The notes: a model not told the origin generated them from the letters alone. DNA of 64,000 nucleotides from Spirochaetia bacterium (GCA_965208575.1 CBDBOV010000004.1:608001-672000); one strand, 5' to 3'. Counted from the first letter of the stretch, positions 1 through 20,105 are shown. A program made the numbers and translations.

Positions 1-1119
1 GGCATCGTTCATTGTTTCGAGGTCCAGGGCCATCTGCATCGCCTGGCGCACCCTGATGTCGTCAAAGGGCGGCTTGTTGGTGTTCATGGCAAAGCTGGCA
101 TTCGACCGTTCTGACCACGTGTGGAAAACGAGCTCGGGGTTGGTCTCCCTGAGGCGATCCGCCGTCTCTATCTCGTTCAATTGGGTGGCGCCCGGCCAAC
201 CTATGAAATCGATCTTAGCAGTGCGCAGCCCGGCCAGAAAGGTGGCCTCTTCAGGGATAACAAGACCCACTACCTCGTCAATATAGGGCAGGCGGTTCTC
301 CGGGTATTTTTCGTCGAAGCCCCAGTAGTTGGGATTCTTGGTCCAGGTTATGGAGCTGCCCTTGGTAAAGTCAGTTATCGTATAGGGCCCGGTGCCGACA
401 ATATTCCTCCAATCCTGCATGTCCCCGTATTGCTCGATTACCTCGGGCGGCTGTATAACAGCATTCCAGTCGTCCAAAATAAGATTCAGCGCGCGGAGCT
501 TCGGCTCCTTCAGCTTCATCACAACCGTATACTTGTCGGTGGCCTCTACCGATTCGAACGGAAAAGCTTTGAGGGTACCCGATGGGGAAGGGTCGGCTTC
601 ACTGAACTGGGTCCCGGTCAATTTATTTCCCAACAGGCGGTGAAAGCTATGTTCGACATCGTCGGCCGTCAGCTCGCGCCCGTTCATCGGCGCTTTGTCG
701 TGCCAGTGAACCCCCTGGCGGATGTGGAAGATGTAGGTAGTGGCGTCGGGCTGTTCCCAGCTTTCAGCCAGCGCCCCCCTCAGGGCGTAGAGCGGCGCGA
801 CATAGCCGGTGAGAAAGGGATATGTGTCCCTATCTATTGCCCAATCCGCCATGGCCAGTTTCTCTACAACGCCACTGGTCATGCCTAACGCTCGGAAGCC
901 AAACCAGACATCGCCAGGCTCGAGGTTGAATTTGATGGCGTGGGTCAAAGTCCCGCCATACTCTGGCGCGCTCACCACGTTGCCGGTGGTCGGGTCGGTC
1001 ACCATCGGCTTGTCGGCAGCCGCAGCCGCTTCCTCGCCGGCGGGCGCCGCCCACGCGGCGGTTGCGGCCAAGACGAACCCGATCAGTGCCGCAACCCATA
1101 GTCTACAATTTCGTATCAT
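1..1119 (-). CDS. ABC transporter substrate-binding protein, family 5 (DppA/OppA-like), runs off window start
   Basis: Read manually. ATG at 1119 with GGAGG RBS gives MIRNCRLWVAALIGFVLAATAAWAAPAGEEAAAAADKPMVTDPTTGNVVSAPEYGGT..., later LAESWEQPD, WHDKAPMNGRELTADDV, VGTGPY and PFDDIRVRQAMQMA. Paralog of 17804..19612. Confidence 0.9.
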   Translation of the reverse strand, partial: MIRNCRLWVAALIGFVLAATAAWAAPAGEEAAAAADKPMVTDPTTGNVVSAPEYGGTLTHAIKFNLEPGDVWFGFRALGMTSGVVEKLAMADWAIDRDTYPFLTGYVAPLYALRGALAESWEQPDATTYIFHIRQGVHWHDKAPMNGRELTADDVEHSFHRLLGNKLTGTQFSEADPSPSGTLKAFPFESVEATDKYTVVMKLKEPKLRALNLILDDWNAVIQPPEVIEQYGDMQDWRNIVGTGPYTITDFTKGSSITWTKNPNYWGFDEKYPENRLPYIDEVVGLVIPEEATFLAGLRTAKIDFIGWPGATQLNEIETADRLRETNPELVFHTWSERSNASFAMNTNKPPFDDIRVRQAMQMALDLETMNDA

Positions 1120-1614
1120 GAGGTTTCCTCCAACCTTCGTTTCTTCGAGAGTGCTGAATTCAGTTGCCGGCCCGCGCCGACTCTCGCGGTATGCCTGCGA
1201 TTCGCAGGGACCGAACAGCGCGGGCGGCACCCTCGACCACGAGCAGTGCCTGGGGTGCCGGCGGGTGGACTGCGGGCGAGCGGCCCGTTGCCGGGAGTTC
1301 CCGCCTGGTGAGGTGACCGGCCGACGACGAATCGGCCGCGAGGCAGCGCCGCGGTCAGCGGACCGCGCAGGCTGCGCAGAAGGTAGCGGTCGCGACCGGC
1401 TAACTCGTTAGTGTTTCTGAGGTTGTATGGAAATGGGCCCCGGTGGGGGGGCAGAGGGCGTCGAGCAGCGGAACGGCGGTAGAGCGCACCGGTTGCGCTA
1501 TCTGCAACCGGCGGCGGCGCTGGGTACTGTCGTCACGCGTCATTCGCATCCGTTCCACCCGCAGCCCGCAGCCATCATTGCACACGCACGGCACACCGTC
1601 AAATGGCCGCGGGG
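990..1614. repeat. ~620-bp direct repeat, copy 1: SBP signal-peptide region, long leader and promoter (copy 2 at ~19484..20105)
   Basis: Near-identical sequence at both loci with only scattered substitutions and small indels. Confidence 0.95.
1574..1602 (-). promoter_or_regulatory. Putative sigma70 promoter for the SBP gene (TTGACG-17-AATGAT)
   Basis: Both hexamers and the 17-nt spacing are conserved in the second repeat copy (20063..20091). Homology between the copies ends just upstream of the -35. Confidence 0.5.
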
Positions 1615-1653
1615 CGCCGGCACTGCGTGCGTACACTTTCCCATGACCGAGGT

Positions 1654-1694
1654 TTGACGACGGCCACAACTGTCACTACACTGCCGTAGTTACA
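1654..1694 (+). promoter_or_regulatory. sigma70 promoter (TTGACG-17-TACACT) with overlapping inverted-repeat operator of the brnTA locus
   Basis: TTGACG at 1654-1659 and TACACT at 1677-1682. The imperfect palindrome TGTCACTAC-N6-GTAGTTACA overlaps the -10. Confidence 0.65.
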
Positions 1695-1745
1695 TGGAGG
1701 GTACCGAGGCAGGAAAGGAGGGCGTATGAAGAAGGCAACCAGTGA
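1694..1745 (+). pseudogene. Internally deleted BrnT toxin remnant
   Basis: ATG GAG start is joined directly to sequence encoding ...RQERRAYEEGNQ*, a typical BrnT C-terminus that overlaps the antitoxin start. Confidence 0.6.
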
Positions 1746-2019
1746 CCGGTTGACCGGGGATCAGAAGGCGGAAATCATGGCTTTGGAGGATTCTCCGGAC
1801 GAGCAGATCGATACGACCGACATTCCTGAAGTCCTCGACTGGTCGGAGGCGAAACGAGGCGTGTTCTTCCGTCCCATGAAGCAGCAGATCACACTCCGGT
1901 TGGATGCAGATGTGGTGGCCTGGTTCAAGCAGCGGTCTCGCGGTGGCCGTGGTTATCAAACCGACATCAACCGTGCACTGCGAGAGCATGTCCAACGAAT
2001 CGAAGGCAGTACCAAGTAG
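1726..2019 (+). CDS. BrnA-family antitoxin (DUF4415)
   Basis: IDTTDIPE...FFRPMKQQITLRLDADVVAWFK...GYQTDINRALRE motif. Confidence 0.9.
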   Translation: MKKATSDRLTGDQKAEIMALEDSPDEQIDTTDIPEVLDWSEAKRGVFFRPMKQQITLRLDADVVAWFKQRSRGGRGYQTDINRALREHVQRIEGSTK

Positions 2020-2034
2020 TCTCCGAGCGAATAG

Positions 2035-3816
2035 ATGCGGCGCCCCACCCCAAACAACAGCGCGCCAAGCGGCCGCGACGCCGACGCCGACTTCATCGTC
2101 GTCGGTGCCGGTGCGGCCGGTGGCGTGATGGCGGCACGGCTCTCCGAGGGCCGCGCGAAGCGAGTGCTGCTGCTCAAGGCAGGACACGACTACGACAGGG
2201 CCGGAAGCAACGAAGGTCTCCCGGACACGATTCGCTACGGCTACGGGAATCGGGACAACGGTGGCCCGGCAGAGGTCCGAGGGCATCACTGGTATCCAGA
2301 TTCCGACAACCCCCTATCCAAAGACGAGGCGTTCGCGCTGCGGGGCGGCCTCTACGGCTACACGCGCGCGGGCGATGGACGGCGCGCCGTCGACCTGCCG
2401 CGCGGGCGTGTGGTCGGGGGGACGACCTCGGTAAACAGCCAGATGTGGGTCCGTGGCACGACCGAGGACTTCGAGCACTGGAGCGGGACGCTCGGCTGCG
2501 CGACATGGTCGTTCGAAAACGTGCTGCCGTTCTTCAACGCCGTCGAGTCGGACGTCGACTATGGGGCCGAAGACTTCCACGGAGACCGCGGCCCGGTCCC
2601 TGTCCGGCGCCACCTGCGCTCGGAGTGGCGGGCGGCCGACGTCGCCTGGCACGACGCCTGCGTGGCGGCCGGATTCGACAGCTGCGCGGACGTCAACGAG
2701 CCCGGGACTGCGGGCGGTGTTGGGTCGCTGGCGCTGAACAACGTGAACCGCGTGCGGCAGAGCTCGGCGCTCACTTTTCTCGCCCAGGCGCGGGGCCGCC
2801 CGAACCTGGTCATCCGCGGTAATTCCGAGGTCCGGCTTGTTCTCTTCGATGACGACCGCGGCACGCCTCGGGCAGTCGGCGTGGAGCTGACGGACGGGAC
2901 GGTTCTGCGTGCCCGAACCGAGGTGATCCTGTGCGGTGGGGCGATCGGTTCGCCGCACCTGCTCCTGCGCTCCGGCGTGGGTCCCGCGGAGGAGCTCGAG
3001 GCGGCGGGGGTCGCCACGATTGTGGATCTCCCCGGTGTCGGCCGGAACCTGCGCGACCACGTGGCGCTTCCGTTGACGTTCCGAATGAAGGAAGGCATCG
3101 CCTCGAACAACGTCGACGGCTCCGCGCACCCCATGCCGATGTACCTTCGGTACACCGCAGACGCGCTCGACGGGATGGCGCCCATGAGGAACGACATGCT
3201 GTTTTTCCTGGGACCGCGGCAGAGCCAGGTGGGCGAGGTCGAGCGCTTGGCCGGGCACAACTCTTCCGGCCACCGCGTTTTCGTCATCATTCCGACCCTC
3301 ATGCTCGAGCTCAGCGCGGGCACGCTGAAGATGCCGGCCGCCTTCGCAGACGGCGCACCAGACATGGAGGCCATGCCCGTGATCGAGATGGGCTGGTTGG
3401 AGCATCCTGCCGATCGCATACGCCTTCGCGAGGGGCTGCGCCTGGCGCTGCGGCTCGCCGCCTCCACGGAGATGGCGACCGTCCTCGAAGGTCCGATCGT
3501 GCCGGCCGAGGACGAGGTGACGGCCGAGTCGTCCGACGCCGCCCTCGACGACTGGGTCGAGCGGCACGTCATTACGTCGCACCACCAGAGCAGCTCGTGT
3601 CGAATGGGCGATCCCGCCGACCCGACGGCCGTGTGCGACGAAGACGGGAACGTGCTCGGGACGAAGGGCCTGCGCGTGGTGGACGCGAGCCTGATGCCGG
3701 ATTGCCCGCGGGCAAACACGCAGGCGACGACCTACATGATGGCTGAGCGTATCGCGGGCATCGTCAACCACGGCTCGTTGGCGGCGGCGCTCCGGGCGGC
3801 GGTCGAGGGAGAGTGA
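2035..3816 (+). CDS. GMC-family oxidoreductase (choline dehydrogenase-like)
   Basis: GAGAAG FAD motif, RGRVVGGTTSVN, GAIGSPHLLLRSGVG, GVGRNLRDH, GLRVVDASLMP and ANT. Confidence 0.92.
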   Translation: MRRPTPNNSAPSGRDADADFIVVGAGAAGGVMAARLSEGRAKRVLLLKAGHDYDRAGSNEGLPDTIRYGYGNRDNGGPAEVRGHHWYPDSDNPLSKDEAFALRGGLYGYTRAGDGRRAVDLPRGRVVGGTTSVNSQMWVRGTTEDFEHWSGTLGCATWSFENVLPFFNAVESDVDYGAEDFHGDRGPVPVRRHLRSEWRAADVAWHDACVAAGFDSCADVNEPGTAGGVGSLALNNVNRVRQSSALTFLAQARGRPNLVIRGNSEVRLVLFDDDRGTPRAVGVELTDGTVLRARTEVILCGGAIGSPHLLLRSGVGPAEELEAAGVATIVDLPGVGRNLRDHVALPLTFRMKEGIASNNVDGSAHPMPMYLRYTADALDGMAPMRNDMLFFLGPRQSQVGEVERLAGHNSSGHRVFVIIPTLMLELSAGTLKMPAAFADGAPDMEAMPVIEMGWLEHPADRIRLREGLRLALRLAASTEMATVLEGPIVPAEDEVTAESSDAALDDWVERHVITSHHQSSSCRMGDPADPTAVCDEDGNVLGTKGLRVVDASLMPDCPRANTQATTYMMAERIAGIVNHGSLAAALRAAVEGE

Positions 3817-3915
3817 CCTACGCGCGCCATGGCGCGGGCCCAAGGACACAAGACGCAAGGGTCAAGATGCAGAGCACGTCTCCATCGGCATCCGGGGGCG
3901 GCTGTGCCATTTGAC

Positions 3916-3993
3916 TCACCAAACCGTATCCAGCCATCCGAGATCGCGCATCAGCTTATCCTTGGTTACCAGTGGCGCGTCGTAGGAGATGGA
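3916..3993 (-). pseudogene. C-terminal remnant of a PIN/VapC toxin
   Basis: Encodes SISYDAPLVTKDKLMRDLGWLDTVW*, matching the PIN-toxin C-terminal LVTxD...TVW pattern. No N-terminus is present. Confidence 0.5.
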
Positions 3994-4010
3994 GGTCGTG
4001 GCATCACGGG

Positions 4011-5498
4011 ATGAAGCCATCGTCCCGACACGCGGCGGAGCGCCAGCTCGTCGAGGAGATCGAGGCGCGCTCCGAAGCCTTCGAGAACCTGCAGGTACTC
4101 GCCGACGATATCGGCACGCGGCAGCCGGGCACCGCGAACGAGGTGCGGGCCCGTGACTTTCTGTGCGACACCCTGAAGCGCTATGGACTTCATCAGGTCC
4201 GGGCGGAACCGTTCCAACACCGGGCATGGACGCCGGTCCGGGAGGAGCTGACGCTCTGCGCCCCCGTGGACCGGACGATTCAGTGCCGCTGCGCCGTGCT
4301 GTCGCCGTCCACGCCCCCCGACGGTCAGGTGGGTGAGGCCGTCATCCTCGAGCGCGGCGACCCCGCCGACTTCGAGCAGCACCGGGAGCAGATCCGTGGC
4401 CGGTTCGTCGTGTCGCTTTACGACTCGACGTACGTGGACGGAGTTGCGCACAGCATCCCACGCCAAATGAAGACCGAGCTTGCGGCGCGATACGGGGCGC
4501 TGGGTTTCATCGGCTGGCACCACAGCCCCGGACAGCACCTGCCCGCGGGAACGTGCGCGTTCGGGCGCGTCGGCGGCGTACCGGTGGCATCGATCACCTA
4601 CGAAGACGGCGCATGGCTTCAGCGTGTCGCACGGCGCAGGGGGGCGCTGCGGTTTCGCCTGCTGCTGGACAGCCGGATCGAACGTAAGGACTCCTGGAAC
4701 GTCGTCGGAGAAGTGACCGCCCGGGGCGAAGGGGCGGAAGCGACCGGCAACGAGCACCTCGTCATCGGCGCGCACTACGACTGTCATCACGTTGCTTCGG
4801 GCGCCATCGACAATGCGGCGGGGGTAGCGACCGTGCTCGAGGCCGCGCGGGGGCTGAGCACGTTCGCATCGCATCTTCGACGCGACGTCAAGATCGTCCT
4901 GTTCGGCGTGGAGGAGGCCGGTCTCGTCGGCTCCATGGCCTATGTGCATCGCCACGAGCGGGAGCTGGGCGACCTCGTGCTGATGATCAACAACGACTGT
5001 CTCGGAGGTCGACCGTCCGGCATCGAAATACAGGGTCGCGACGAACTTCGCGGAACCATGGAGCAGGTCGCGGAGAGCGTCCGGATCGGTGGCGAACCTC
5101 CGCCTCCTTTCCGCGTCACGACCGCCCATCCCGGCTGGTGGGGCCTGGACAGCACACCGTTCGGATTCAAGGGCGTCCCGACGGTCCACCTGACGTCGAC
5201 CGAGGCGAAGACCGGGGACTTCGCTTCCTATCACCTCGACACCGATCACATCGACAAGGTGTGCATCCCGGGCCTCACGGAGGCGGCGGCGGTCAACGCG
5301 CGGATCGCCCTCCACGTCGCCAACCTGACCGAGCGCCCGGCGGCTCGCATCGACCGATCGCACGTAGAAGAGATCCTTCACCGATACGACCGGGAGCCGC
5401 CGTTCTACACGATCATCTCGTTGCGCGAATCCCTCGAACTGCTGGATCTCTGGCCGATCGATCATGCGATCGAACGCTACTTTTCCCGCGAAGACTGA
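4011..5498 (+). CDS. M28-family metallopeptidase with PA domain
   Basis: GAHYD, GAIDNAAG, EEAGLVGS, NND and YHLDTD zinc-ligand motifs. Confidence 0.9.
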   Translation: MKPSSRHAAERQLVEEIEARSEAFENLQVLADDIGTRQPGTANEVRARDFLCDTLKRYGLHQVRAEPFQHRAWTPVREELTLCAPVDRTIQCRCAVLSPSTPPDGQVGEAVILERGDPADFEQHREQIRGRFVVSLYDSTYVDGVAHSIPRQMKTELAARYGALGFIGWHHSPGQHLPAGTCAFGRVGGVPVASITYEDGAWLQRVARRRGALRFRLLLDSRIERKDSWNVVGEVTARGEGAEATGNEHLVIGAHYDCHHVASGAIDNAAGVATVLEAARGLSTFASHLRRDVKIVLFGVEEAGLVGSMAYVHRHERELGDLVLMINNDCLGGRPSGIEIQGRDELRGTMEQVAESVRIGGEPPPPFRVTTAHPGWWGLDSTPFGFKGVPTVHLTSTEAKTGDFASYHLDTDHIDKVCIPGLTEAAAVNARIALHVANLTERPAARIDRSHVEEILHRYDREPPFYTIISLRESLELLDLWPIDHAIERYFSRED

Positions 5499-5506
5499 CT
5501 GGACGA
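4414..5506 (+). repeat. ~1.09-kb direct repeat, copy 1 (copy 2 at 14663..15755)
   Basis: Sequence from CGCTTTACGACTCG to just past the stop codon is nearly identical at both loci. Confidence 0.97.
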
Positions 5507-5835
5507 CTGGGGTTCAACCCGAGTCAGCCCCCTTATCCGCTGCATTCTCGCCACACGCGCCTGCGACAGCCCTCGTTACACCTGCCACAGCCACCCGCTC
5601 GCTCGCCCTCGTGCTGATCAGTCACGACCCCCGCTGCACCTCGCGGGTGCTTTTGCGCTCGTTCGGTTCTCGATTACTCTTCCACTATCACTTGGCGAAG
5701 CGGCGTGACCGGGGAGTTCCCGGGGCTGCTTCATCGCCCCGCGATGCTCAGCCATTGACCTCGTCCGTCACTTCCTCGCTCAGGTCAATCTGAGACGGAA
5801 CAACACGCTGATCCAAAAGCACGGCAGCTCCATCC

Positions 5836-6907
5836 CAGTTCCGCGATCTGCTCGACAGCCATGACTATGAACCGCTGCTCGGCTGCTTCGGCGACTGGAT
5901 AGGGCGCATGCAGGACGCCAAATGGCTGCAGCACTATCAGTTCCTCGACGGTCGCTACCTCGTCACCATGGACGGCTCCCAGTACTTCAGCTCGTACAAG
6001 GTGAACTGTGAGTGCTGTCTGACCGCCACCAACAACGGCACCGTACGCTACCACCACGACATCCTGCAGACCGCCATCGTCCACCCCGACAAGCGGCAGG
6101 TGCTGCCGTTGGCTCCCGTGTTCATTCACAACGCCGATGACTCTGGCGCCAAGAGCGCCAAACGCCGCAAGCAGGACTGTGAACCAAAAGCCGGCTACCG
6201 TGCCGTGCAGCGCATCCGTAACGACCATCCCCGGCTGGCTGCGGTGATCGTCGCCGATAGCCTGTATTCCAAGCAACCGTTCATCAAACAGGTGCGCGCC
6301 GCCCGCTTCTCGTTTCTGCTGGTGGCCAAGCCGGAGGATCACATCAGCCTGTACCAGGATATCGACGGGCTGCGCCGCGGTCGGCTGCTGGACCACCGCT
6401 GCACCATCGACGCGACCGGGGACCGGCATGAATACGAGTGGGTTCCCGGGGTGCCGCTGAACGGCAAACCCCCGCAGTCCCCAGATCAACTTCGTGCACT
6501 ACCGCATCGTACGGGCCGGCACGACCACCTATCAAAACGCCTGGGTGACCGACTTGGTACCCACCGCTGGCAGCGTCGCGCGGATCGTGCGTGCGGGACG
6601 AGCACGCCGGAAGATCGAGAACGAGAGGTTCAATACGCTGAAGAACCAGGGCTATCACCTGGAGCACAACTTCGGCCATGGTGACAAGTACCTGTCGGAG
6701 GCGTTCTTCCTACTCAACCTGCTCGCCTATTTCATGCACCAGATATTCGAGCTGGTGGACGGTCTGTATCAGCAGGTGCGGGCTGGGTTCGGGTCGCGCC
6801 GGGAGTTCTGGGGCGCGGTGCGTGCCACGTTTCGGCTATTCCTGATCCCGTCGTGGGACCAGGTGCTGGTGCGGATGAACTCTCCGCCGCAGCCGCTGTC
6901 CGGGTAG
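5836..6907 (+). pseudogene. DDE transposase remnant (ISNCY/IS4-like), 5'-truncated and frameshifted near 6470-6495
   Basis: DGSQYFSSYKVNCECC, KQDCE and ADSLYS in one frame; RARRKIENERFNTLKNQGYHLEHNFGHG in another. Confidence 0.85.
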
Positions 6908-7397
6908 CCGCTCCCTGGAGAACTGAACCTGCTCCCTGAACGATCCCTGACTGGGGCTGCGGCGCAGGTGTGCCGGCGGCGCGCGGGCAACCGGCCCCGA
7001 AGGGCCGATCGCGGCACCGCGCCAGCCCACGGCATCGGCCGAGCGGCGGTGGCTGACGGTGGTCAGGTCATCGCACGGGGCTGGCTTGACGGTGGCTAAA
7101 TACATCACCTGCAATCAGTTACAGAATTTCTGCCGGGTCGGGCCGTGCGTGCATTCACTCGGTGGGCCAACAGGTGGGCATGGTCGCGTTTCACACTCGG
7201 AGGGCTTGAGCTTATGAGGGGGCTTGCGGTCTCGCCCTCGAAACTTTTCTGTAACCTTTCGGCCCCCAATGTTGCATTACTATTTATGATGCTCTGCTGC
7301 TCCCCGAGAATTGCTGGTTGCAGAACACACCAGTTGACAGCTTTGGCGCTTTCACCTAAGGTCGGAGCGTTCTGGTGGGGGGCCGAGATGAGGGCAG

Positions 7398-7612: not shown

Positions 7613-7715
7613 AACGGCCGACGACGTCGGCCGCCACGAAGCCGTGCGTCCAACAGCCGACCCCGTCGGCTGCCACGCGTCCGCGCGTCCAACGGCCGAC
7701 GATGTCGGCCGTAAC
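7613..7715 (+). repeat. Three palindromic units with 39-bp period in the SBP 5' region
   Basis: AACGGCCGAC-GAC-GTCGGCCG at 7613, AACAGCCGAC-CCC-GTCGGCTG at 7652, AACGGCCGAC-GAT-GTCGGCCG at 7691. Confidence 0.9.
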
Positions 7716-7800
7716 CTCCACCAGTCCACTGAGGCCGGCGTTGCCGGCCAAGCAAAACAAACGGGCAACGGTACAGCCGACCCGACAGAGGAGGACCATT

Positions 7801-9579
7801 ATGGTCCGATTCATTTCAATTACACTGGCGTTCGCGCTGGTGGCGACCGCTGCGTTTGCCGGAGGGGGCAGCGACAGCGACAGCTCGGCTGCGGCCGAGA
7901 AGGAAATGGTGCGCGATCCATCCACCGGCGAGATGGTGACCGCGCCCGAGTATGGCGGCACGATCCGACCGATCGTCAACTTCAAGAACGAGGGCATCGA
8001 TCCCTATTACAGCTACACTTCCGGATTCTGGGTTTCGCTGACCAACGAGAAACTGGGGGGAGTGGACTGGGCAGTCGACCGGAGCGTGGTCGGCTTCGAC
8101 ACGCTGTACCTGCCCAACGTGGTCGTCACCGGGCTGCTGGCCGAGAGCTGGGAGAACCCGGATCCGCTCACCTACGTGTTCAAGATCCGCGACGGCGTGT
8201 TCTGGCACGACAAGGCGCCGGTGAACGGTCGCCAGCTTACGGCGCACGATGTCAAGTTCCACTACGAGCGGATCGTGGGACTCAGCGGTGAGAAGAGCGC
8301 GGAAAGCTCCGGAGAGCTGTACGACGAGCTGTCGGTCGCGTCGATCACGGCTCCCGACGATTTCACCCTGGTAGTCAAACTGAACAAGCCCGATCTCCGA
8401 GCCCAGAATGCCCTTCTCTTGGACTTCGGTGCGTGGATAGTGCCGCCCGAGGTGGTCGAGCAATTCGGGGACATTCAAGACTGGCGCAACGTGGTCGGAA
8501 CGGGTCCCTATCAGCTGACCGACGTGGTGGAGGGCAGCTCGTGGACCTACACCAAGAACGATAACTACTGGCGCAACGACCCGAAATTCCCCGACAACCG
8601 GTTGCCCTACGCGGACAAGGTCGAGTACATCATCGTCAACGACCCCGCGGCCATCACCTCACTGATGCGCTCGGGGCAGGCGGACTATATGGGGTTCCCT
8701 CTCAACTCGCATCTGACCAGTGTCGATGCGGCGGTGAGTCTGCAGAAGACCAGTCCCAACCTGGTGCTCCACCCGTTTTCCTTTCGCTCGGAAACGGCGT
8801 TCAGTTTCAACAACCAAAAGCCGCCCTGGAACGACATCCGGGTGCGCCGGGCCCTCAGCATGGCCATAGACCAGGAGTCCATCGCCGAGAACTACATGCA
8901 GGGTTGGGGCGATGCAAGCCCGCACGGTCCCACTGGCGCCAAGGTGCTCGGGTACGCCGTCCCGTTCGACGAGTGGCCCCAGGAGACCAAGCAGTACTAT
9001 CGGTTCGACCCCGAGGCGGCCGAGAAGCTGCTGGAGGAGGCCGGCTATCCGCGGGGCGAGGACGGCATTCGCTTCAGCACCGTCTATGAGCACTTCGAAT
9101 TCTACGACCTCGGCTACTACCAGATCGCCATGGATTACCTCAGGCAGATCGGCATCGACGTCGAGATCCAGGTAAGAACTCGCGCGGAGTTGGGCGCATT
9201 AGTTACGAACCGCACCTACCTCGGTCTGCTCTCGAATGTATGGGCCGCCGAGTATCCCGATGGCATCGCCCCGCTTGCCCAATACTCGTCTAAAAACCTA
9301 AACCATTTGAACATCCAGGACCCCGTATTCGAAGAGTACTACGAGAACGCGACGGCCGCTACCACGATAGAGGAGCAGCAGGAGTGGGCGCGGAAGGCCA
9401 ACCTGCGTTTGGCCGAGCAGCTGGTGGTGATCAGGGGCCCCATAGCGCCCCTGTTCGGTGCGACCCAACCATGGTTAAAGGGCTACAACGGAGAAGGCGA
9501 GCTCGGCCGCATGAACCGTGCTGGCATCTTCCAGTACCTCTGGATCGACCAGGACCTGAAGCGGGAGCTTGGATTCTGA
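7801..9579 (+). CDS. ABC transporter substrate-binding protein, family 5 (orphan, no adjacent permease)
   Basis: GAGGAGG RBS and signal peptide, then MVRDPSTGEMVTAPEYGGT, LAESWE, VGTGPY and DIRVRRALSMAID. Confidence 0.93.
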   Translation: MVRFISITLAFALVATAAFAGGGSDSDSSAAAEKEMVRDPSTGEMVTAPEYGGTIRPIVNFKNEGIDPYYSYTSGFWVSLTNEKLGGVDWAVDRSVVGFDTLYLPNVVVTGLLAESWENPDPLTYVFKIRDGVFWHDKAPVNGRQLTAHDVKFHYERIVGLSGEKSAESSGELYDELSVASITAPDDFTLVVKLNKPDLRAQNALLLDFGAWIVPPEVVEQFGDIQDWRNVVGTGPYQLTDVVEGSSWTYTKNDNYWRNDPKFPDNRLPYADKVEYIIVNDPAAITSLMRSGQADYMGFPLNSHLTSVDAAVSLQKTSPNLVLHPFSFRSETAFSFNNQKPPWNDIRVRRALSMAIDQESIAENYMQGWGDASPHGPTGAKVLGYAVPFDEWPQETKQYYRFDPEAAEKLLEEAGYPRGEDGIRFSTVYEHFEFYDLGYYQIAMDYLRQIGIDVEIQVRTRAELGALVTNRTYLGLLSNVWAAEYPDGIAPLAQYSSKNLNHLNIQDPVFEEYYENATAATTIEEQQEWARKANLRLAEQLVVIRGPIAPLFGATQPWLKGYNGEGELGRMNRAGIFQYLWIDQDLKRELGF

Positions 9580-9871: not shown

Positions 9872-10927
9872 TTAATCCCGTCATGTGCCAAAACTCAGCC
9901 GGATGGTATCTCCGGTGCGGAGATTCTATCGGAAAGGGTTACCATTATAGATTCTCGCCCGGGATCGTGATTTCAGAGCTAACTGCGCGGCCGCATACTA
10001 ATTGCGATCTCTCGTTCCTGCTCCATTTGGCAAAGATGGCGACTATTCCGTCCACATTTGTTTGCGTAGCGGAACTTACCTGAAGCCGGTAACAGAATGC
10101 GCAAAAAGCACTAACGCGTTTTTAACGGCATTCCAGGTTGACGGTGGTCGTAAAGGAAAGGAGTCAGTCATCTGTTCCCGAGAGGCAATCCGACTTATCG
10201 GTACGATTATCTGTCCGTCACGTAAGGAGGTGTAGCGTCAAGCCGCGTCGCGGTAGTAGTAGTTGAGGAAGCCGCCCGAGCGAGACCTTGTTTTGATATT
10301 GCCTTTGTTTCTTCCTACATTGTCGTCTGCATGAATGATGTGGCTACCCAATCCCTGGTGGTTTCGCTCTGTGTGGTAGTACTCCATATATTCTTTGATG
10401 GCGAGGCGAAGAGGATGAACAGTGGATCTCTGTCCATGATGAGATATCGGACATCTCGAAGAAACCCGTCGAAAGGATCAGTCAGATTGCGGCCCATTTG
10501 CTTCATCCAGGCTTCAGAAGGCTGATCCGTGATGCCGACGATCTGCACCTCTCGCGTTTCAAGGTGTATCGAAAACAGGACGTAGTAGCTGACATTTGCG
10601 GGAATTATTCAGCCTACGCCTCTGCTTATGAGTGAATCGGAGCCGATGGCCTTTGCAGAGCTCCTGGTATACCCGGATCTCTTCAATGAGATAGTCAATA
10701 ATCTTCTGCTGATCTCTGTTGATCCAGCCGGCTGCGAGTAGGATGAAGAATCGTAAATAGTCTGACATAGCGGGGAAGATATCACATTTTCGAAGATTTA
10801 GTTCGTGAATGCGTGCCTTGAACATCGGAATCGGATCTATGACAACTGAGCCGGATTGGACAGCTAAATGCTTTCGCTGACGAAACATACGAAAATCCGG
10901 CTGAGTTTTGGCACAGGACGGGGTTAA
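9872..10927 (-). mobile_element. Internally deleted integrase-core (rve, IS481-like) element with intact terminal inverted repeats
   Basis: 33-bp IRs with 2 mismatches: TTAATCCCGTCATGTGCCAAAACTCAGCCGGAT and ATCCGGCTGAGTTTTGGCACAGGACGGGGTTAA. The interior is visibly more AT-rich than the flanks. Confidence 0.85.
10238..10768 (-). pseudogene. Fragmented integrase-core/transposase gene
   Basis: Fragments GWINRDQQKIIDYLIEE...LRFTHKQRRRL, GITDQPSEAWMKQMGRNLTDPFDGFL...LIMDRDPLF and SGGFLNYYYRDAA*. Confidence 0.85.
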
Positions 10928-12519: not shown

Positions 12520-12526
12520 CTCGGCG

Positions 12527-13157: not shown

Positions 13158-13432
13158 GTCCGCAGCGAGGACGCTGAGAACCGAGTAGCCAGCAAGACAG
13201 GCGGCATGGGCGATGGGCTTACTGATGGTGGAACAGCTCTAACGAACTTGCGGGAAGCAGTCAAGCTAACGAGCTGAGCTAGCGCCGCTAGCGCCCTAGC
13301 GCTGCTAGCGCCTGCTGGAATTTTCGCTCGAATTGGGTCGGATAGGTAGGATGAGGAGGCTGAGGCCGACCAAAAATGGCCTCGTAGCGCGCTGAGCCGG
13401 GCTTGAGTATCGAGGGCGCGGGGCTGTAAGAG

Positions 13433-14640
13433 CTACGCGAGAGCCTGGAACGCCTTCGCGGTTGCCGTCAGCGCCTGCTCGATGTCGGCTTCGGTGTGCG
13501 CGATCGACAGGAACATGTTGTGCCACGGGTGCAGGTAGACGCCGTTCTGCAGGGCGTGGGTGCAGAACGCCATGCCCTTCTCCATCTTCGGGTCGTCCTC
13601 GAACATGACGGTGGGGATCTGCGGGGGGCCGCTCTGGCGGATCGCGTGGCCGTAACGGGTGGATTGCTCCGCGAGGCCGTCACGGAACAGTTGACCCATG
13701 CGCGCGGTCAGGGCCGGAGCGTCGACCTCGGCGAGAAGATCGAGCGTCTCGATGGCCGCCGCCAGCGGCGCCGCTGGTACCAGAGCGATCCGGTCACGAA
13801 GATGGACTCGGCCGCTTCGCGGTAGGGCTCGCTGCCGAGGATGGCCGACAGCGGTTCGCCGTTGGCGATCGCCTTGCCCCAGGCCGACAGGTCGGGCTGG
13901 ATTCCCAGCAACGACCAACTCGCATCCAGGGACAGACGCAGTCCGGCGCGGACATCATCCAGGATGAGCGCGGCACCCTCGGCGTCGCAGATCGCGCGCG
14001 CCTTCCGGGCGAAGGCCGGGTCGGGCAGCTCCTGGTGGTAGCCGGCGTCGTGCTTGAAGGCCGAGACCACGATGCCCGCGAGGTCTCCCGAGGCCGCCTT
14101 GGCTGCTGCGGTCAGGCTGTCGATGTCGTTGTAGGTGTAGCGTGGAAAGAGCTCGTGCTCCTCTGCCGGCGTTCCGTGCGACATCCGATTCGCCCACGGC
14201 TGTGCGCAGTGGTAGGCGCCGCGCGCGACCAAGATGTTCCGCTTCTCGCTCTTCGCGCGGGCCACCATGTTGCACACGGTGGTGGCGTCGTTGCCGTTCT
14301 TGGCGAAGATCGCCCAATCGGCGTGGCTCACCTGGTCCACGAAGCGCTCAGCCAGGTCGACCATGACCGGCGGCGGGCCGTTGGCGATGTCCAGCAGATC
14401 CCGCTGCGCGTCGGCAGCAGCGGCGATCCGCCGGTTGCCGTACCCGGCGATCATCGGGCCAAAGGCGCACATGAAGTCGATATACTCGTTGCCGTCCACG
14501 TCCCAGAGGCGGCAGCCATCGGCCCGGTGATAGTACTGGGGATAACCCGGCGGCATCTTCCGATAGACTGACATGTGGCCGTACATGCCACCGGGGATCA
14601 CGCGCTTGGCGCGTTCTCGGAGCGCTGCGTCAGTGTTCAT
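13433..14640 (-). pseudogene. Class III aminotransferase (glutamate-1-semialdehyde aminomutase-like) with a single frameshift near 13775
   Basis: IPGGMYGH, WDVDGNEYIDF, KNGNDAT, ILDDVRAG and WGKAIANG. The C-terminus continues in another frame after ...TACCAG|CGGCGCCG. Confidence 0.85.
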
Positions 14641-14662
14641 GTTCCAGACCCCGCCTTGCTGG

Positions 14663-15747
14663 CGCTTTACGACTCGACGTACGTGGACGGAGTTGCGCAC
14701 AGCATCCCACGCCAAATGAAGACCGAGCTTGCGGCGCGATACGGGGCGCTGGGTTTCATCGGCTGGCACCACAGCCCCGGACAGCACCTGCCCGCGGGAA
14801 CGTGCGCGTTCGGGCGCGTCGGCGGCGTACCGGTGGCATCGATCACCTACGAAGACGGCGCATGGCTTCAGCGTGTCGCACGGCGCAGGGGGTCGCTGCG
14901 GTTTCGCCTGCTGCTGGACAGCCGGATCGAACGCAAGGACTCCTGGAACGTCGTCGGAGAAGTGACCGCCCGGGGCGAAGGAGCGGAAGCGACCGGCAAC
15001 GAGCACCTCGTCATCGGCGCGCACTACGACTGTCATCACGTTGCTTCGGGCGCCATCGACAATGCGGCGGGGGTGGCCACCGTGCTCGAGGCCGCGCGGG
15101 GGCTGAGCACGTTCGCATCGCATCTTCGACGCGACGTCAAGATCGTCCTGTTCGGCGTGGAGGAGCCCGGTCTCGTCGGCTCCATGGCCTATGTGCATCG
15201 CCACGAGCGGGAGCTGGGCGACCTCGTGCTGATGATCAACAACGACTGTCTCGGAGGTCGACCGTCCGGCATCGAAATACAGGGTCGCGACGAACTCCGC
15301 GGAACCATGGAGCAGGTCGCGGAGAGCGTCCGGATCGGTGGCGAACCTCCGCCTCCTTTCCGCGTCACGACCGCCCATCCCGGCTGGTGGGGCCTGGACA
15401 GCACACCGTTCGGATTCAAGGGCGTCCCGACGGTCCACCTGACGTCGACCGAGGCGAAGACCGGGGACTTCGCTTCCTATCACCTCGACACCGATCACAT
15501 CGACAAGGTGTGCATCCCGGGCCTCACGGAGGCGGCGGTGGTCAACGCGCGGATCGCCCTCCACGTCGCCAACCTGACCGAGCGCCCGGCGGCTCGCATC
15601 GACCGATCGCACGTAGAAGAGATCCTTCACCGATACGACCGGGAGCCGCCGTTCTACACGATCATCTCGTTGCGCGAATCCCTCGAACTGCTGGATCTCT
15701 GGCCGATCGATCATGCGATCGAACGCTACTTTTCCCGCGAAGACTGA
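14663..15747 (+). pseudogene. 5'-truncated second copy of the M28 peptidase gene
   Basis: Almost identical to 4414..5498 but lacks the first ~134 codons. EEAG is changed to EEPG. Confidence 0.9.
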
Positions 15748-16751
15748 CCGGACGACGGCCGCCGGCCCCCGTAGCGACCGGCGGCGCCGCGCAGACGCGG
15801 GTCCAGCAGGTCCCGCACCGCGTCGCCGAACAGGTTGAGGGCGTAGACCGTCACCGTCAGGCACAGGCCCGGCCACAGCGCCAGCCGCGGCGCAATCTCC
15901 ATGTACTGGCGACCCTCGCGGCTCAGCATGCCGCCCCAGCTTGGAACGGTCACCGGCAGGCCGAAGCCCAGGAAGCTCAGCGACGCCTCGGCAATGATCA
16001 CGCCGCCGACGTTGATGCTGAACACGACGATCAGCGGCGCGGCGATGTTGGGCAGCACGTGACGGACGAGCGTGCGCAGCGTGCGGGCACCGATCGCCTC
16101 CGCGGCCTGGAAGTAGGCGTTCTCCTTGACCCCGATCACCGCGCCGCGCACCACCCGTGACGCGGGAATGCCGCCGGTCACCCCGAGCACGACGATGATC
16201 TGCGCCACGCCGCGCCCGGTGATCGACATGATCGTCAGCAGCAACAGCAGCCCCGGAAACGACATCCACGCGTCCACGAACCGTTGCGCGTAGATGTCCA
16301 GCCGCCCGCCGATGAAGCCGGTGGTGCCGCCGATCAGCAACGCGACGATGACATTCAACGACGTTGCCGCGAGCCCGACCGTAATCGACAGGCGCGCGCC
16401 GATGATGAGGCGGCTCAGGAAGTCGCGGCCGACGTGGTCGGTGCCCAGCAGGTGCGCGGCGGACGGGCCCTGCATCCGGTCCTGCACGCGGCCGCGGTCG
16501 AATTCGTAGGGCGCGAGCTGCGCGGCGAAGATGGTGATGAACACCAGTGCCACGACGATGAGGCCGCCAATGGCTCCCAGCGGCTGTTCCTTCAGCAGCC
16601 GCGAGAGGAAGCTGGCCGCCGGTCGCCGGCGCGCCGGTGCAGGAGCGCCCGCCGCCGAGGGTCCGGCACCCGCGCCGCCGCTTGAGCCGCCACCACCGCG
16701 TGCGCCTGTGCGGCCGGCGCCGGCCGCGGCCCCCGGCGCCGGCTCACTCAT
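15726..16751 (-). CDS. Peptide/nickel ABC permease (DppC/OppC-like)
   Basis: HLLGTDHVGRD, HVLPN, LSFLGFG, PSWGGML and NLFGDAVRDLLDPR. Confidence 0.93.
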   Translation of the reverse strand: MSEPAPGAAAGAGRTGARGGGGSSGGAGAGPSAAGAPAPARRRPAASFLSRLLKEQPLGAIGGLIVVALVFITIFAAQLAPYEFDRGRVQDRMQGPSAAHLLGTDHVGRDFLSRLIIGARLSITVGLAATSLNVIVALLIGGTTGFIGGRLDIYAQRFVDAWMSFPGLLLLLTIMSITGRGVAQIIVVLGVTGGIPASRVVRGAVIGVKENAYFQAAEAIGARTLRTLVRHVLPNIAAPLIVVFSINVGGVIIAEASLSFLGFGLPVTVPSWGGMLSREGRQYMEIAPRLALWPGLCLTVTVYALNLFGDAVRDLLDPRLRGAAGRYGGRRPSSGQSSREK

Positions 16752-17715
16752 AGCGCACCCGCGGATCCAGCAGGGCGTAGGTCAGGTCGGTGCCGAGGTT
16801 GATCACCACCACCACCGAGGCAAATAACAGGTTCACGCCGGAGACCACCGGGTAGTCGCGCGCGTTGAGGGCAGACAGCATCAGACTGCCGAGCCCCGGG
16901 AGATTGAAGATGTTCTCGATGATGACCGAGCCGCCGGCGATGATGGGCAACTGCAGCGCCACCAGGGTCACCACCGGGATGAGGGCGTTCTTGACCGCGT
17001 GGCGCAGCACCACGGTCCTCTCCGCCAGGCCCTTGGCCCAGGAGGTCCTCACGTAGTCCTGGCGCAGCACCTCCAGCATCATCGTGCGCGTCATGCGCAT
17101 GGTGCTCGCTGCCAGGTAGGTCCCCAGAATCACGGCGGGAATGATCAACATGCCGAGATTGGCCCATGGGTCTTCGGTGAAGCGGACGTGCGTCAGCGGC
17201 GGCGTCCAGCCCCACCAGATTGCGGGGTAGATCATCACCATCAGTCCCAGCCAGAAGTTGGGGGTCGCCAGGCCGAAGATGGCGACCGCCCGGCCGGCGT
17301 AGTCGGCCACCGTGTACTGGCGAATCGCCGAGTAGATGCCGATCGGCACGGCGATGATGACCCCGGTGAGGATCGCCAGCAGCCCCAGCTCGACCGTTAC
17401 CCCGACCCTGCCGGCGAGTTTCTGTTCCACCGTTGCGCTGCCCAACGAGCCGCTGTACAGCGAGCGGCCGAGGGTGCCACGCAGGACGATGTCACCGATC
17501 CACTTCGCGTATTGCGCGTAGACGGGTTTATCGAGTCCGAGTTGTCTCTTCAGAGCCTCCTCATCGATCGTGCCGCTCTGGGTTGCGGTCATCCGGGCTG
17601 TCATCACGTCGATGATGTCGCCGGGAATGAAGCGAACCGAGAGAAACACCAGGAGGGTGACGATGAACAGGGTCGGGATCACCAGCAGTATCCGCCTGAT
17701 CACATACGCCCGCAC
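16744..17715 (-). CDS. Peptide/nickel ABC permease (DppB/OppB-like)
   Basis: YVIRR, PGD, PNFWLG, MLEVLRQDYVRT, HAVKNALIP and DPRVRY. Confidence 0.93.
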   Translation of the reverse strand: MRAYVIRRILLVIPTLFIVTLLVFLSVRFIPGDIIDVMTARMTATQSGTIDEEALKRQLGLDKPVYAQYAKWIGDIVLRGTLGRSLYSGSLGSATVEQKLAGRVGVTVELGLLAILTGVIIAVPIGIYSAIRQYTVADYAGRAVAIFGLATPNFWLGLMVMIYPAIWWGWTPPLTHVRFTEDPWANLGMLIIPAVILGTYLAASTMRMTRTMMLEVLRQDYVRTSWAKGLAERTVVLRHAVKNALIPVVTLVALQLPIIAGGSVIIENIFNLPGLGSLMLSALNARDYPVVSGVNLLFASVVVVINLGTDLTYALLDPRVRYE

Positions 17716-17736
17716 CTCGGCTCACCTCCTTGGATG

Positions 17737-17766
17737 AAAGGGGTGGCAGGTTGCGCCCGCCACCCC
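17737..17766 (-). terminator. Intra-operon stem-loop downstream of the SBP gene
   Basis: On the minus strand GGGGTGGCGGGC-GCAA-CCTGCCACCCC followed by TTT. Confidence 0.6.
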
Positions 17767-17803
17767 GTGTTCGCCCTTAAAACGCTGACGTTGGAAGCGA
17801 GCG

Positions 17804-19612
17804 TCAGAACCCCATTTCTGCCTTCAGGTCCCGGTCGAGCCAGAGCCGGGCAAGAACCTCGTGATAGTTTTCTGGGTGCACGAACGTCTCGCCGTTCCAG
17901 CCCTTGACCCACGGATGCGCCACCTGGAATCCGGGCGCCTTGCCGGTCCACACCTGAAAATGCTGCGAAACGAGGTATTGGTCGAACTCGTTGGCGATTC
18001 GTGTCAGCTCCGCCTCGCTGGTCGCTGTTTGGAACTCGTTATAGAGTCGAATCAGCGTGGCGTTGGGAGTCCCACCGAACCACTCGTTCCAACCGTGCGG
18101 CTCGGTGTCCGCCCCAAGAGAACGGGCGAAGCCTATGATGTGTTCAGGGGCTGCATCGAAGCCCAAATCGCCGGTGGACATCTCGTAGAGTGCGTCCACT
18201 TTACGACTCCACCAGGTGCTGCTGTCGTAGACGTCGATCTCCACCTCCACGCCGATCTCTTTGAAGTAGCCGGCCGCGATCTCGGCGAGGCCCAGGTCGA
18301 TGACGTCGCGGTGGTCGTGGGTGGCCCTGAAGCGGACGCCGTCCGCGCCGCGTGGGTAGCCGGCCTCGTCGAGCAATTGCTCCGCCTTCTCCGGGTCGTA
18401 GCGGTATTGGTCCTGGAGCTCCTTTGGCCACTCGTCGAATGGAAGAAAATAGGGTCCGGTCGCGTTGCCGAAGATGCCCTGGGGCTTCCACAGCGCGTAC
18501 CCGCCATAGTAGCTCTCGTTAACCGCCTCGCGGTCGATCGCCATCTGCATTGCCTGGCGGACGCGGATGTCGTCGAACGGCGGCGTACGGGTGTTCAGGC
18601 CGATTTGCCCGAGCGCCCGGAGGAAGTAGGGGCCCACCTGGATGTCGGGGTTGGTGCGCAACACCGACTCTATCACCTCGAAGGTCTTGATGTCGACGCC
18701 GCCGCCGGCAACGTGGATCATGTCGACCTGGCCGGTGCGAAACGCGGCGAGGCGGGTCGCCTCCTCCGGCATGAACAGACCCTTCAGCTCGTCGACGTAG
18801 GGCAGCCGGTTGTCCGGGTACTTCTCGTCGAAGTCGTGGTAGTTGGGAATGCGCGTCCTGGTTATCGAGACGCCCTCGACGTAGTCAGTGAGCGTGAACG
18901 GCCCGGTGCCGACCACGTTTCGCCAGTCGCTGTAGTCACCGTGCTGCTCGATGACCTCGGGTGGCAGAATCCATGAGTTGGACTGGCCGAGGATCGCCCG
19001 GGCCAGGCCGGCGCGCGGCTCGGTCAGCTTGAATTCGACCGTGTATCGGTCAAGGGCTTCGATGGATTCCCACGGATAACCCTCAACCTCGCCGGCAACT
19101 CTGGGCTCGAAGTCGAGCAGGCCGCCAATGCGGCGGTAGGTAAAGGCGACGTCTTCGGCGGTGAGTTCGCGCCCGTTGACCGGCGGCTTGTCGTGCCAGC
19201 GGATGTCCGGTTTGATCTTGACGATCAGCGTTCGGTCGTCCGGCTGCTCCCAGCTCTCGGCCAGGTTGCCCTTGAAGCGCGAGAACGGCACATACCAACC
19301 GGTAAAGCTCACCTCGTCCCGGGGCGCACCCCAGTCTCCCTTCGCAAGCTTCTCGTTGACCGCGTAGATCTGATAGCCGGAGTAGTGTCCTGTGATATGC
19401 GGGTCGGTGGTCTCCCCGAACAGCTTGTACGGGTAGGTCAGCGTGCCGCCGTACTCGGGTGCGGTCACCTGCATCCCGGTCGTCGGGTCGGTCACCATCG
19501 GCTTGTCCGCAGCCGCGGCCGCTTCCTCGCCGGCGGGCGCCGCCCACGCGGCGGTTGCGGCCAAGACGAACCCGATCAGTGCCGCAACCCATAGTCTACA
19601 GTTTCGTATCAT
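17804..19612 (-). CDS. ABC transporter substrate-binding protein, family 5
   Basis: True start is ATG at 19612 (GGAGG RBS). Signal peptide identical to the 1..1119 SBP; LAESWEQPD, VGTGPF and DIRVRQAMQMAID. Confidence 0.93.
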   Translation of the reverse strand: MIRNCRLWVAALIGFVLAATAAWAAPAGEEAAAAADKPMVTDPTTGMQVTAPEYGGTLTYPYKLFGETTDPHITGHYSGYQIYAVNEKLAKGDWGAPRDEVSFTGWYVPFSRFKGNLAESWEQPDDRTLIVKIKPDIRWHDKPPVNGRELTAEDVAFTYRRIGGLLDFEPRVAGEVEGYPWESIEALDRYTVEFKLTEPRAGLARAILGQSNSWILPPEVIEQHGDYSDWRNVVGTGPFTLTDYVEGVSITRTRIPNYHDFDEKYPDNRLPYVDELKGLFMPEEATRLAAFRTGQVDMIHVAGGGVDIKTFEVIESVLRTNPDIQVGPYFLRALGQIGLNTRTPPFDDIRVRQAMQMAIDREAVNESYYGGYALWKPQGIFGNATGPYFLPFDEWPKELQDQYRYDPEKAEQLLDEAGYPRGADGVRFRATHDHRDVIDLGLAEIAAGYFKEIGVEVEIDVYDSSTWWSRKVDALYEMSTGDLGFDAAPEHIIGFARSLGADTEPHGWNEWFGGTPNATLIRLYNEFQTATSEAELTRIANEFDQYLVSQHFQVWTGKAPGFQVAHPWVKGWNGETFVHPENYHEVLARLWLDRDLKAEMGF

Positions 19613-20105
19613 GAGGTTTCCTCCAAACCTTCGTTTCTTCGAGAGTGCTGAATTCAGTTGCCGGCCCGCGCCGACTCTCGCGGTATGCCTGCGATTCGCA
19701 GGGACCGAACAGCGCGGGCGGCACCCTCGACCACGAGCAGTGCCTGGGGTGCTGGCGGGTGGACTGCGGGCGAGCGGCCCGTTGCCGGGAGTTCCCGCCT
19801 GGTGAGGTGACCCGCCGACGACGAATCGGCGGTGAGGCAGCGCCGCGGTCAGCGGACCGCGCAGGCTGCGCAGAAGGTAGCGGTTGCGACCGGCTAACTC
19901 GTTAGTGTTTCTGAGGTTGTATGGAAATAGCCCTGGGGGGGAGGGGGGTACAGAGGGCGTAGAGCGGCGGTAGAGCGCCGGTTGCGCTATCTGCAACCGG
20001 CGGCGGCGCCCGGTACTGTCGTCACGCGTCATTCGCATCCGTTCCACCCGAAGCCCGCAGCCATCATTGCGCACGCACGGCATACCGTCAAATAGCCGCG
20101 GGGCG
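19484..20105. repeat. ~620-bp direct repeat, copy 2 (signal peptide, leader and promoter)
   Basis: Matches 990..1614. Confidence 0.95.

Follow-up and report, generated by a model that had tools for sequence, protein, structure and literature searches.

Recombination among related bacterial genes takes several described forms. In concerted evolution by gene conversion, known from duplicated tuf genes and rRNA operons, whole genes are homogenised. In pilE/pilS, vlsE and the Treponema gene tprK, one expression site is accompanied by silent donor cassettes, or inverted repeats act together with a recombinase, and in type I hsdS genes the specificity domains are exchanged between conserved frames. 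A further form is that of the babA/babB/babC chimeras of Helicobacter pylori, which are described as products of RecA-dependent intragenomic conversion that affects expression (PMC5483490). This report concerns genes for family-5 solute-binding proteins (SBPs) of ABC-type importers in a sponge-associated Spirochaetia bacterium (GCA_965208575.1), as seen from a stretch of 64,000 nucleotides (nt) of its genome (CBDBOV010000004.1:608001-672000). This whole stretch is called the window; it equals positions 608001-672000 of contig C4 of the genome under study, G000, and coordinates are window positions unless a contig is named. The subject is a block of DNA, here called the module, that stands in front of SBP genes with different binding bodies. 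It was probably distributed by non-programmed homologous recombination or gene conversion, i.e., concerted evolution, among tandem paralogous operons, in a way that re-wires regulation and export.

A shared 5' block and the operons behind it

The module is 677 bp long and comprises a promoter-like site, a leader of ~450 nt, a start codon and the first 43-44 codons of an SBP gene. An initial annotation of the window, made from the sequence alone, had noticed it as a near-identical pair, and this pair is real: copy B (940-1616) and copy C (19433-20105) are 92.5% identical over 683 alignment columns, rising to 98% in a core (1132-1431 against 19626-19925), and their edges are abrupt, identity dropping at either end to ~35-50% in a single 50-nt bin. 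The picture of two copies was right for the window and incomplete for the genome, as a third copy, A, is found ~8 kb before the window (C4:600344-601019, 91.7% identity), which brings the genome total to three. The genome-wide and comparative BLAST search that had been proposed as a check also found further copies in three congeneric genomes, G001, G005 and G006. In a three-way alignment of A, B and C, identity is 0.9-1.0 per 50-nt bin within the module, falls to 0.2-0.5 inside one 50-nt bin at the upstream edge, and at the downstream edge falls to 0.36-0.66 for B against the other copies. The single strongly variable spot is a C-rich tract (~1438-1470 and 19930-19960), whose length and sequence differ among A, B and C.

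The features of the window that the argument draws on are as follows.

1-987, minus strand: binding body of SBP B, family 5, continuing 680 nt before the window start (Pfam SBP_bac_5, E=2e-54)
940-1616, minus strand: module copy B, with promoter-like site, leader, start codon and 43-44 codons (identity to C and A)
988-1119, minus strand: start codon, Sec-type signal peptide and Ala/Glu linker contributed by the module (four-way alignment; crossover at 991-988)
1120-1573, minus strand: GC-rich leader, read as non-coding (frame-breaking 1-2-nt indels between copies)
1574-1602, minus strand: match to a sigma-70-like promoter, TTGACG-17-AATGAT; TG precedes the -10 hexamer (sequence scan)
1726-2019, plus strand: orphan BrnA-type antitoxin gene at the upstream edge of module B (Pfam PF14384, E=4e-15)
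7702-9579, plus strand: fourth family-5 SBP gene, with the same N-terminal motif (MVRDPSTG..APEYGGT) and no module (Pfam, E=8.5e-70)
15726-17715, minus strand: permease genes of operon C, DppB at 16744-17715 and DppC at 15726-16751 (Pfam BPD_transp_1, OppC_N)
17804-19612, minus strand: coding sequence of SBP C, 602 amino acids plus stop (Pfam SBP_bac_5, E=1e-64)
19433-20105, minus strand: module copy C, the apparent native context (15760-20105 orthologous in G001 and G006; homology ends at 20105)
20180-20661, plus strand: truncated BrnT open reading frame (ORF) at 20180-20389 and a 72-amino-acid ORF at 20443-20661, beside module C (PF04365, E=5e-15)

The promoter named in the initial annotation was recovered by the scan on the minus strand at 1602..1574, with 9 of 12 positions matched and 2 sites in the region against 0.1 expected from shuffled sequences, and in the alignment it is conserved in A, B and C. 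Its description of a ~450-nt leader followed by ~43 codons also agrees with what was measured, namely 454 nt from the -10 hexamer to the ATG, with 43-44 codons in common; the ATG lies at 1119 in B and at 19612 in C, preceded by GGAGG in both. The leader is regarded as non-coding because the copies differ by 1-2-nt indels. An Rfam scan of the module gave 0 matches at E<=10, the folding of the leader is weak (z-score -1.7), and in the fold of its alignment 4 of 84 predicted pairs are compensatory, all of them from one lineage, with a covariation term of -0.15. Its conservation and position suggest that the leader may have a function. The signal peptide, read by eye, runs from MIRNCR through a hydrophobic stretch to AWA/AP and is followed by an Ala/Glu-rich linker that leads to the motif MVTDPTTG. 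In the RNA run X15, contigs lie on the B body (303-678 and 718-996) and on brnA (1703-1956), and positions 997-1700 are uncovered, although contigs of this kind cannot show absence.

The module and its SBP genes B and C are on the minus strand, and each of A, B and C is the first gene of an SBP_bac_5 - DppB - DppC operon, as assigned with Pfam. Membership of the SBPs in family 5 (PF00496) is well above the cut-off of 32.4 bits, with 185 bits for B, 219 for C, 220 for A and 236 for the fourth SBP; a scan with NCBIfam equivalogs gave at best 92 bits against cut-offs of 393-1098, so that no named class (OppA, DppA, NikA) was reached. The initial annotation had supposed that the SBPs share DppBC permeases, which is not supported, since each of the three operons has a DppB-DppC pair of its own. 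The scarce parts are the ATPases: operons A, B and C are without an ATPase gene, and the genome as a whole has 134 ORFs for family-5 SBPs and at least 150 matches to OppC_N permeases, against 28 matches to DppD/F-type (oligo_HPY) ATPases, which are thus ~5-fold scarcer. Therefore the ATPases, not the permeases, must be shared, presumably as pairs common to many transporters. One ATPase pair is present within the window (~53518-54734).

The fourth SBP gene of the window confirms the third paralogue of the initial annotation, with its motif MVRDPSTG..APEYGGT, and is similar to the module only at 7886-7961 (77%). The stranded 3' tail of another SBP that was said to follow it was not confirmed, as tblastn with 114 SBP bodies gave nothing past 9576 at E<=1; a resemblance of 11 residues to an SBP after 9579 was seen by eye only.

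Several neighbouring features of the window are recorded here as observations. Three copies of a segment of an M28-peptidase gene are present, with 99% identity between 4411-5507 and 14660-15756 and likewise between 4003-5504 and C3:653826-655327; the one at 14660-15756 stops 4 nt from the operon-C block (edge at 15760) and overlaps convergently with the 3' end of DppC. A 460-bp direct repeat (20853-21312 and 24307-24766, 96%) is located at the beginning of a gene for a GNAT acetyltransferase (minus strand, 20858-21832). At ~10100-10800 (minus strand, GC content 49%) there is what looks like a broken integrase-core gene of the IS3/IS481 type with in-frame stops, read by eye from the six-frame translation.

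Origin of the copies and the genome-wide pattern

Judged by orthology, operon C is the native context of the module. Its whole length from DppC through DppB and SBP C to the module (15760-20105) is orthologous at 93-96% in G001 and G006, and the same block is orthologous in G005 minus the first 160-205 nt of the module. The orthologues of SBP C are 96% (G001), 95% (G005) and 98% (G006) identical in amino acids, and each of them stands behind the module.

The case of SBP B is different in that it can be demonstrated to be a chimera of the module and an unrelated body. B has a single close orthologue, in G005 (contig C3), which is 94% identical in amino acids. At the nucleotide level the two genes are 94.5% identical from window position -2692 to 1035, where homology ends, and the leader of the G005 gene is unrelated to the module. 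In a four-way alignment B matches the module upstream and its G005 orthologue downstream, and the breakpoint that the initial annotation had proposed to look for is placed by maximum chi-square at 989. Above it, 294 sites have B equal to C and not to the G005 gene, against 10 sites of the opposite kind; below it, 1 site is of the module type and 81 are of the G005 type. The Fisher probability for this switch (P=8e-71) is uncorrected for the breakpoint search, and its upstream part reflects alignment to non-homologous sequence, but the change of type itself is unambiguous. With the last module-type site at 991 and the first B-type site at 988, the crossover falls in a 14-nt stretch that is identical in both parents and lies within MVTDPTTG. 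The end point at MVTDPTTG..APEYGGT given by the initial annotation needs a correction: in B it is inside MVTDPTTG (991-988), and the 3' boundary shared by A and C is ~30 nt further, after APEYGGTLTY.

The rest of gene and operon B points the same way. The B body is 42% identical to those of A and C, the paralogue nearest to B (63%) is encoded on contig C1, and neither A nor C ranks among its 8 best. Synonymous divergence between B and C (dS, Nei-Gojobori) is 0.22 in the N-terminal 55 codons, 1.69 in the body, 1.00 in DppB and 1.87 in DppC, so that B has only the module in common with A and C. The leader of the G005 orthologue belongs to a type of element of ~190 nt, which is also carried by 2 of the 3 nearest paralogues of B, and we therefore infer that the module replaced a leader of this type in the G000 lineage. 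Synteny upstream of B was sought in G005 and none was found; the neighbouring gene there maps to contig C3 of G000.

The ~190-nt element deserves a description of its own. In G000, 49 of its 51 matches lie upstream of family-5 SBP genes (loci L129-L148, e.g., L130:1-301, and L044:19210-19390, all outside the window), and its copies, 75-90% identical, are more conserved than the coding sequences. It starts with an AGGAGG-type Shine-Dalgarno sequence and a mini-ORF of 11 codons, whose 3' half contributes an arm to a GC hairpin of 12 bp; in the mini-ORF, several of the variants are synonymous. An Rfam scan of the element gave nothing above noise, and covariation is weak (1 of 43 pairs).

SBP A is a closer relative of C (68% protein identity), and here the signal is one of age. 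Between A and C, dS is 0.17 in the N-terminus, 0.175 in DppB and 0.145 in DppC, against 0.40 in the SBP body (body dN, the nonsynonymous counterpart, 0.25), which means that an older body is flanked by young sequence at either end. Compared with leaders of the C type, the leader of A shows 95-97% identity, but with those of its nearest body relatives in G001 it shows only 79-84%. G001 has a second tandem array (L026, G001:C1:4367679-4379651), in which three SBP operons follow each other at 5.7-kb spacing with different bodies; they have a promoter-proximal segment of their own in common at 87-91%, with a leader 80-85% like the module, and the array is an independent case of the same mosaic. 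Leader kinship therefore follows the array and not the body.

The pattern extends to the genome as a whole. Of its 134 SBP ORFs, 114 have an anchor resembling PEYGG, and these were compared in pairs for shared 5' tracts ending at most 60 nt from the anchor, with a minimum identity of 90% and a minimum length of 200 nt. Twenty pairs were found, which involve 26 of the 114 genes and form 10 clusters, 6 of them wholly within 65 kb on one contig (tally from coordinates). Body identity within clusters ranges from 42 to 94%; 14 of the 20 pairs stay under 70%, and 10 of them under 60%. A simple change-point was located for 15 pairs. In 11 it lies in the interval from -82 to +42 nt relative to the anchor; the other 4 have it at ~+333 to +355, with identity decaying gradually. 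Synonymous divergence in the shared parts is 2- to 15-fold below that of the bodies. Together with the chimera B and its module-free orthologue in G005, the 10 clusters bear out the proposal of the initial annotation that recombination at the N-terminal motif joins a common module to unrelated bodies.

Its companion proposal, exchange at a C-terminal motif, is not borne out: in 7 of 8 pairs examined the 3' boundary is after the stop codon, with identity resuming near the stop or at the start of the permease gene, and A-C is the sole pair of the 8 in which it resumes before the SBP gene ends, in its final 53 nt. In several pairs the permease DNA downstream is 95-100% identical, with bodies at 72-75%; measured from ~300 nt past the SBP stop, identity is 100% across ~2 kb in some pairs and 95-100% across much the same length in others. 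The best body identity within the genome has a median of 64% and exceeds 90% in 2 of 114 genes. A scenario of recent duplication and later conversion by a donor inside the genome is excluded, as no body has a near-identical copy elsewhere in it. A tandem pair on contig C3 illustrates the outcome. The orthologues of its bodies in other species are 98, 91, 90 and 89% identical for one type, and 93 and 87% for the other, and the frames of the two genes in G000 are ~99% alike, with dS of 0.03 in the tract and 0.51 in the body; the frames are therefore younger than the bodies.

Upstream edges and the weighing of explanations

On the reading that we prefer, the module would be the native 5' end of a family-5 SBP-DppB-DppC operon of type C, up to the DPxTG..PEYGG motif, which ordinary homologous (homeologous) recombination between paralogous operons would have copied or joined onto two other operons. 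At A this would have been the conversion of an already related leader, and at B the replacement of an unrelated one, with the 3' crossover in the identical 14-nt stretch of the motif. Homology anchors would be provided at one end by this motif, conserved where the mature protein begins, and at the other by the downstream permease genes, which are likewise conserved; the diverged binding body between them would stop or resist conversion, leaving young frames round old, distinct bodies. As a result, three transporters with different SBPs would come under one promoter, leader and export signal, with specificity unchanged by the event. RecA-type recombination is the presumed agent, and A, B and C may be co-regulated.

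The upstream side of the module is more complex, and its flanks differ at every copy. At B there is the orphan brnA, and the 110 nt that separate it from the module contain no BrnT. At C the BrnT ORF covers profile positions 1-58 of 77, its continuation in another frame being read by eye, and the 72-amino-acid ORF has no Pfam match. The initial annotation had described both as toxin-dead brnTA loci backing the module; an intact adjacent BrnT/BrnA pair is indeed present at neither flank, and the remnants are of this kind, but the DNA of one flank shows no homology to that of the other. The upstream edge of A abuts an ISKra4-like gene (198.8 bits against a cut-off of 205), and that of G006 a weak PIN-like ORF (E=0.002, below the cut-off). 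In G001 a gene for an Xer-like tyrosine recombinase (L028:11528-12598; Phage_integrase, E=1e-23) starts ~280 nt from the module edge, and it has no counterpart near the window in G000. The coincidence of toxin-antitoxin genes with this recombinase raised the idea of an integron, which was dropped, as the G001 protein scores 56.6 against an integron integrase cut-off of 265 and no such gene is nearby in G000. Most simply, the site directly ahead of the promoter would be a place of repeated insertion by mobile genes, with the promoter itself having to remain intact.

Genes of the Rpn family (PF04754) are also found in this neighbourhood. One lies between operons A and B (C4:602932-603519, window ~-5070 to -4480; TIGR01784, 55.1 bits against 52.1); with the ISKra4-like gene it makes up a pair of mobile-type genes, both between these operons and 4-7 kb before the window. 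Eight of the 14 Rpn matches in the genome are at most 5 kb from a family-5 SBP gene, compared with ~20% for random places; the associated P of ~0.002 comes from a post-hoc test that ignores clustering. Several Rpn-family genes sit between SBP operons with a common 5' module. In published work, Rpn proteins are linked to RecA-independent transfer and to phage defence (PMC5350276, PMC10400941).

Several points weigh against recombination between tandem operons as set out above. The position of the module's upstream edge agrees to within ±4 nt among A, B, C and the orthologues in G001 and G006, where it abuts five unrelated sequences, and neither blastn at word size 7 nor tblastx detected homology between the sequence upstream of B (beyond 1616-1620) and the flanks of A or C. 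Gene conversion normally requires homology on both sides of the tract. Operons A and C are homologous downstream of the module and not upstream of it. The locus thus displays a sharp tract, a break in dS and a module-free orthologue, all of them marks of gene conversion, but not homology on both sides, and repeated insertion upstream of the promoter leaves the arrival of the module at B without upstream homology unexplained. In addition, body dN/dS is ~0.3-0.7, so that fast protein evolution also adds to the divergence of the bodies; the polarity of the event at B, in which the module moved into B, is derived from parsimony; promoter activity and transcription of the leader are putative; and in the independent runs X5 and X6 the contigs of the B body end at 1012 and 1018, less than 31 nt past the joint, and do not bridge it.

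The last point touches on whether the chimera exists at all. The genome is a metagenome-assembled genome with an estimated contamination of 5.75%, and short-read contigs break at repeat edges, so that a chimera of strains made in assembly or polishing comes to mind; the stretch is contained in public runs from sponge metagenomes. Contigs of one of them, run X1, cover 749-1110 and 1564-2600 with 0 differences and cross both joints of B, although X1 is possibly the source sample and is therefore not independent support. Independent support is given by the same arrangement of module and body in three other assemblies, and the three copies, with their unique flanks, differ pairwise at 2-8% of positions. 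Selective constraint alone, acting without recombination, fares no better, as synonymous sites are also conserved in the shared codons and the unrelated leader of the B orthologue cannot arise by constraint. We regard an artefact, or constraint as the sole cause, as extremely improbable.

More weight is due to the possibility that parts were re-assorted from outside the genome, i.e., that whole bodies or 5' modules were exchanged, much like alleles being replaced, between strains or species of the sponge-associated population, with the conserved frames (leader and signal peptide on the upstream side, permeases on the downstream side) as homology arms. No body has a donor within the genome; the module copies of G000 are about as unlike each other (92-98%) as they are unlike those of other species (94-100% in the leader core), and the promoter part of B is closest to that of G001 (96%). 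The genomes are also heavily rearranged around these operons. Furthermore, contigs of X5 and X6 with the flank of brnA and a GMC-oxidoreductase gene diverge at 1620-1624, continuing for 186 and 214 letters unlike the module, and the joint of module and brnA is therefore not universal among related populations. The body types are, on the other hand, stable orthologues across species (87-98%), transfer machinery is not associated with the loci, and the confinement of 6 of the 10 clusters to 65 kb on one contig is what local conversion predicts, all of which makes exchange from outside unlikely as the principal cause. The missing intragenomic donor bodies can also be read in another way, as they favour homogenised frames over swapped bodies.

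The initial annotation had itself envisaged a dedicated system for the recurrent exchange of binding domains behind one expression module, which would diversify uptake. The recurrence of junctions at the N-terminal motif, the rise of A-C identity in the last 53 nt, the 10 clusters and, post hoc, the proximity of Rpn-family genes to SBP genes are all compatible with such a system. Its machinery was nevertheless absent wherever it was sought. Between -25 kb and +64 kb, tblastn with the 114 bodies revealed no silent cassettes or SBP fragments, the hits being 4 full genes and 1 distant family member. Neither inverted repeats nor recombinase sites were found at the junctions, the only inverted repeats being arms of 70-75% between oppositely oriented paralogues, and of the 17 matches to tyrosine recombinases (PF00589) in the genome none is on C4 between 121,890 and 1,196,018, i.e., none within ~480 kb. 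Each copy is equipped with a promoter-like site, a start codon and a pair of permeases of its own; the 3' boundaries past the stop codon are not those expected of swapping at a C-terminal motif; the body types are fixed orthologues across species; and Rpn proteins are, in published work, also assigned to phage defence (PMC10400941). A dedicated system is hence very unlikely. A related reading, which we hold to be unlikely, is a modular architecture maintained by recombination, in which frames would recombine at DPxTG..PEYGG and at the 3' end of the gene and re-assort old bodies among regulatory contexts within and between strains, perhaps aided by Rpn nucleases and by mobile toxin-antitoxin and insertion-sequence genes at the edges of the frames; it would be selected rather than an accident of paralogy. 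If true, it would amount to a selected mechanism for tuning which substrates enter under which signal.

Meaning of the mosaic and comparison with known systems

If homologous recombination among tandem operons is the correct explanation, a symbiont with ~134 SBP genes can reassign its transporters to other promoters and leaders, with ligand specificity left untouched. These operons are also a clean natural example of "islands of divergence" within homogenised operons, where old and fast-evolving bodies are set between young front ends and permeases. One practical consequence is that the inference of orthology or of regulons from upstream regions will mislead in this SBP family. Another is that the 450-nt leader of the module and the ~190-nt element, the latter found with ~50 SBP genes, both long and conserved, may be new elements that regulate the uptake of nutrients by sponge symbionts.

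Regarding the transporters themselves, their membership among the peptide/nickel/opine ABC importers (cluster C SBPs, PF00496) is clear from the order of SBP_bac_5 followed by DppB and DppC. They differ from typical importers of this class in that the G000 operons are without ATPase genes and their SBPs reach no equivalog cut-off. In the body of literature that was searched, on SBPs of sponge spirochaetes and on SBP gene conversion, no account of such mosaics among transporter SBPs was found.

As for the way in which the mosaic was formed, the cassette systems (pilE/pilS, vlsE, tprK) and hsdS resemble the SBP genes of G000 in having variable segments bounded by conserved recombining sequences, but the silent donors, inverted repeats and recombinase of the cassette systems were not found at the G000 loci. 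Concerted evolution of the tuf and rRNA type is similar in its sharp-ended tracts of high identity, which are younger than the rest of the locus and follow genome location, not the phylogeny of the genes; in G000, by contrast, the flanks are homogenised and the binding body in the middle remains as an old island. Nearest among described cases are the bab paralogues of H. pylori, where the 5' part and expression context of one paralogue are likewise fused to the body of another (PMC5483490). The bab genes are three outer-membrane adhesin genes of a pathogen that vary within hosts. In G000, ~134 transporter SBPs are concerned, a leader of 450 nt is exchanged, the chimeras look fixed, and the permeases downstream are homogenised too. 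Recombinant paralogues and concerted evolution are thus known in kind, and what is notable here is the scale and the pattern of an old body in a young frame.

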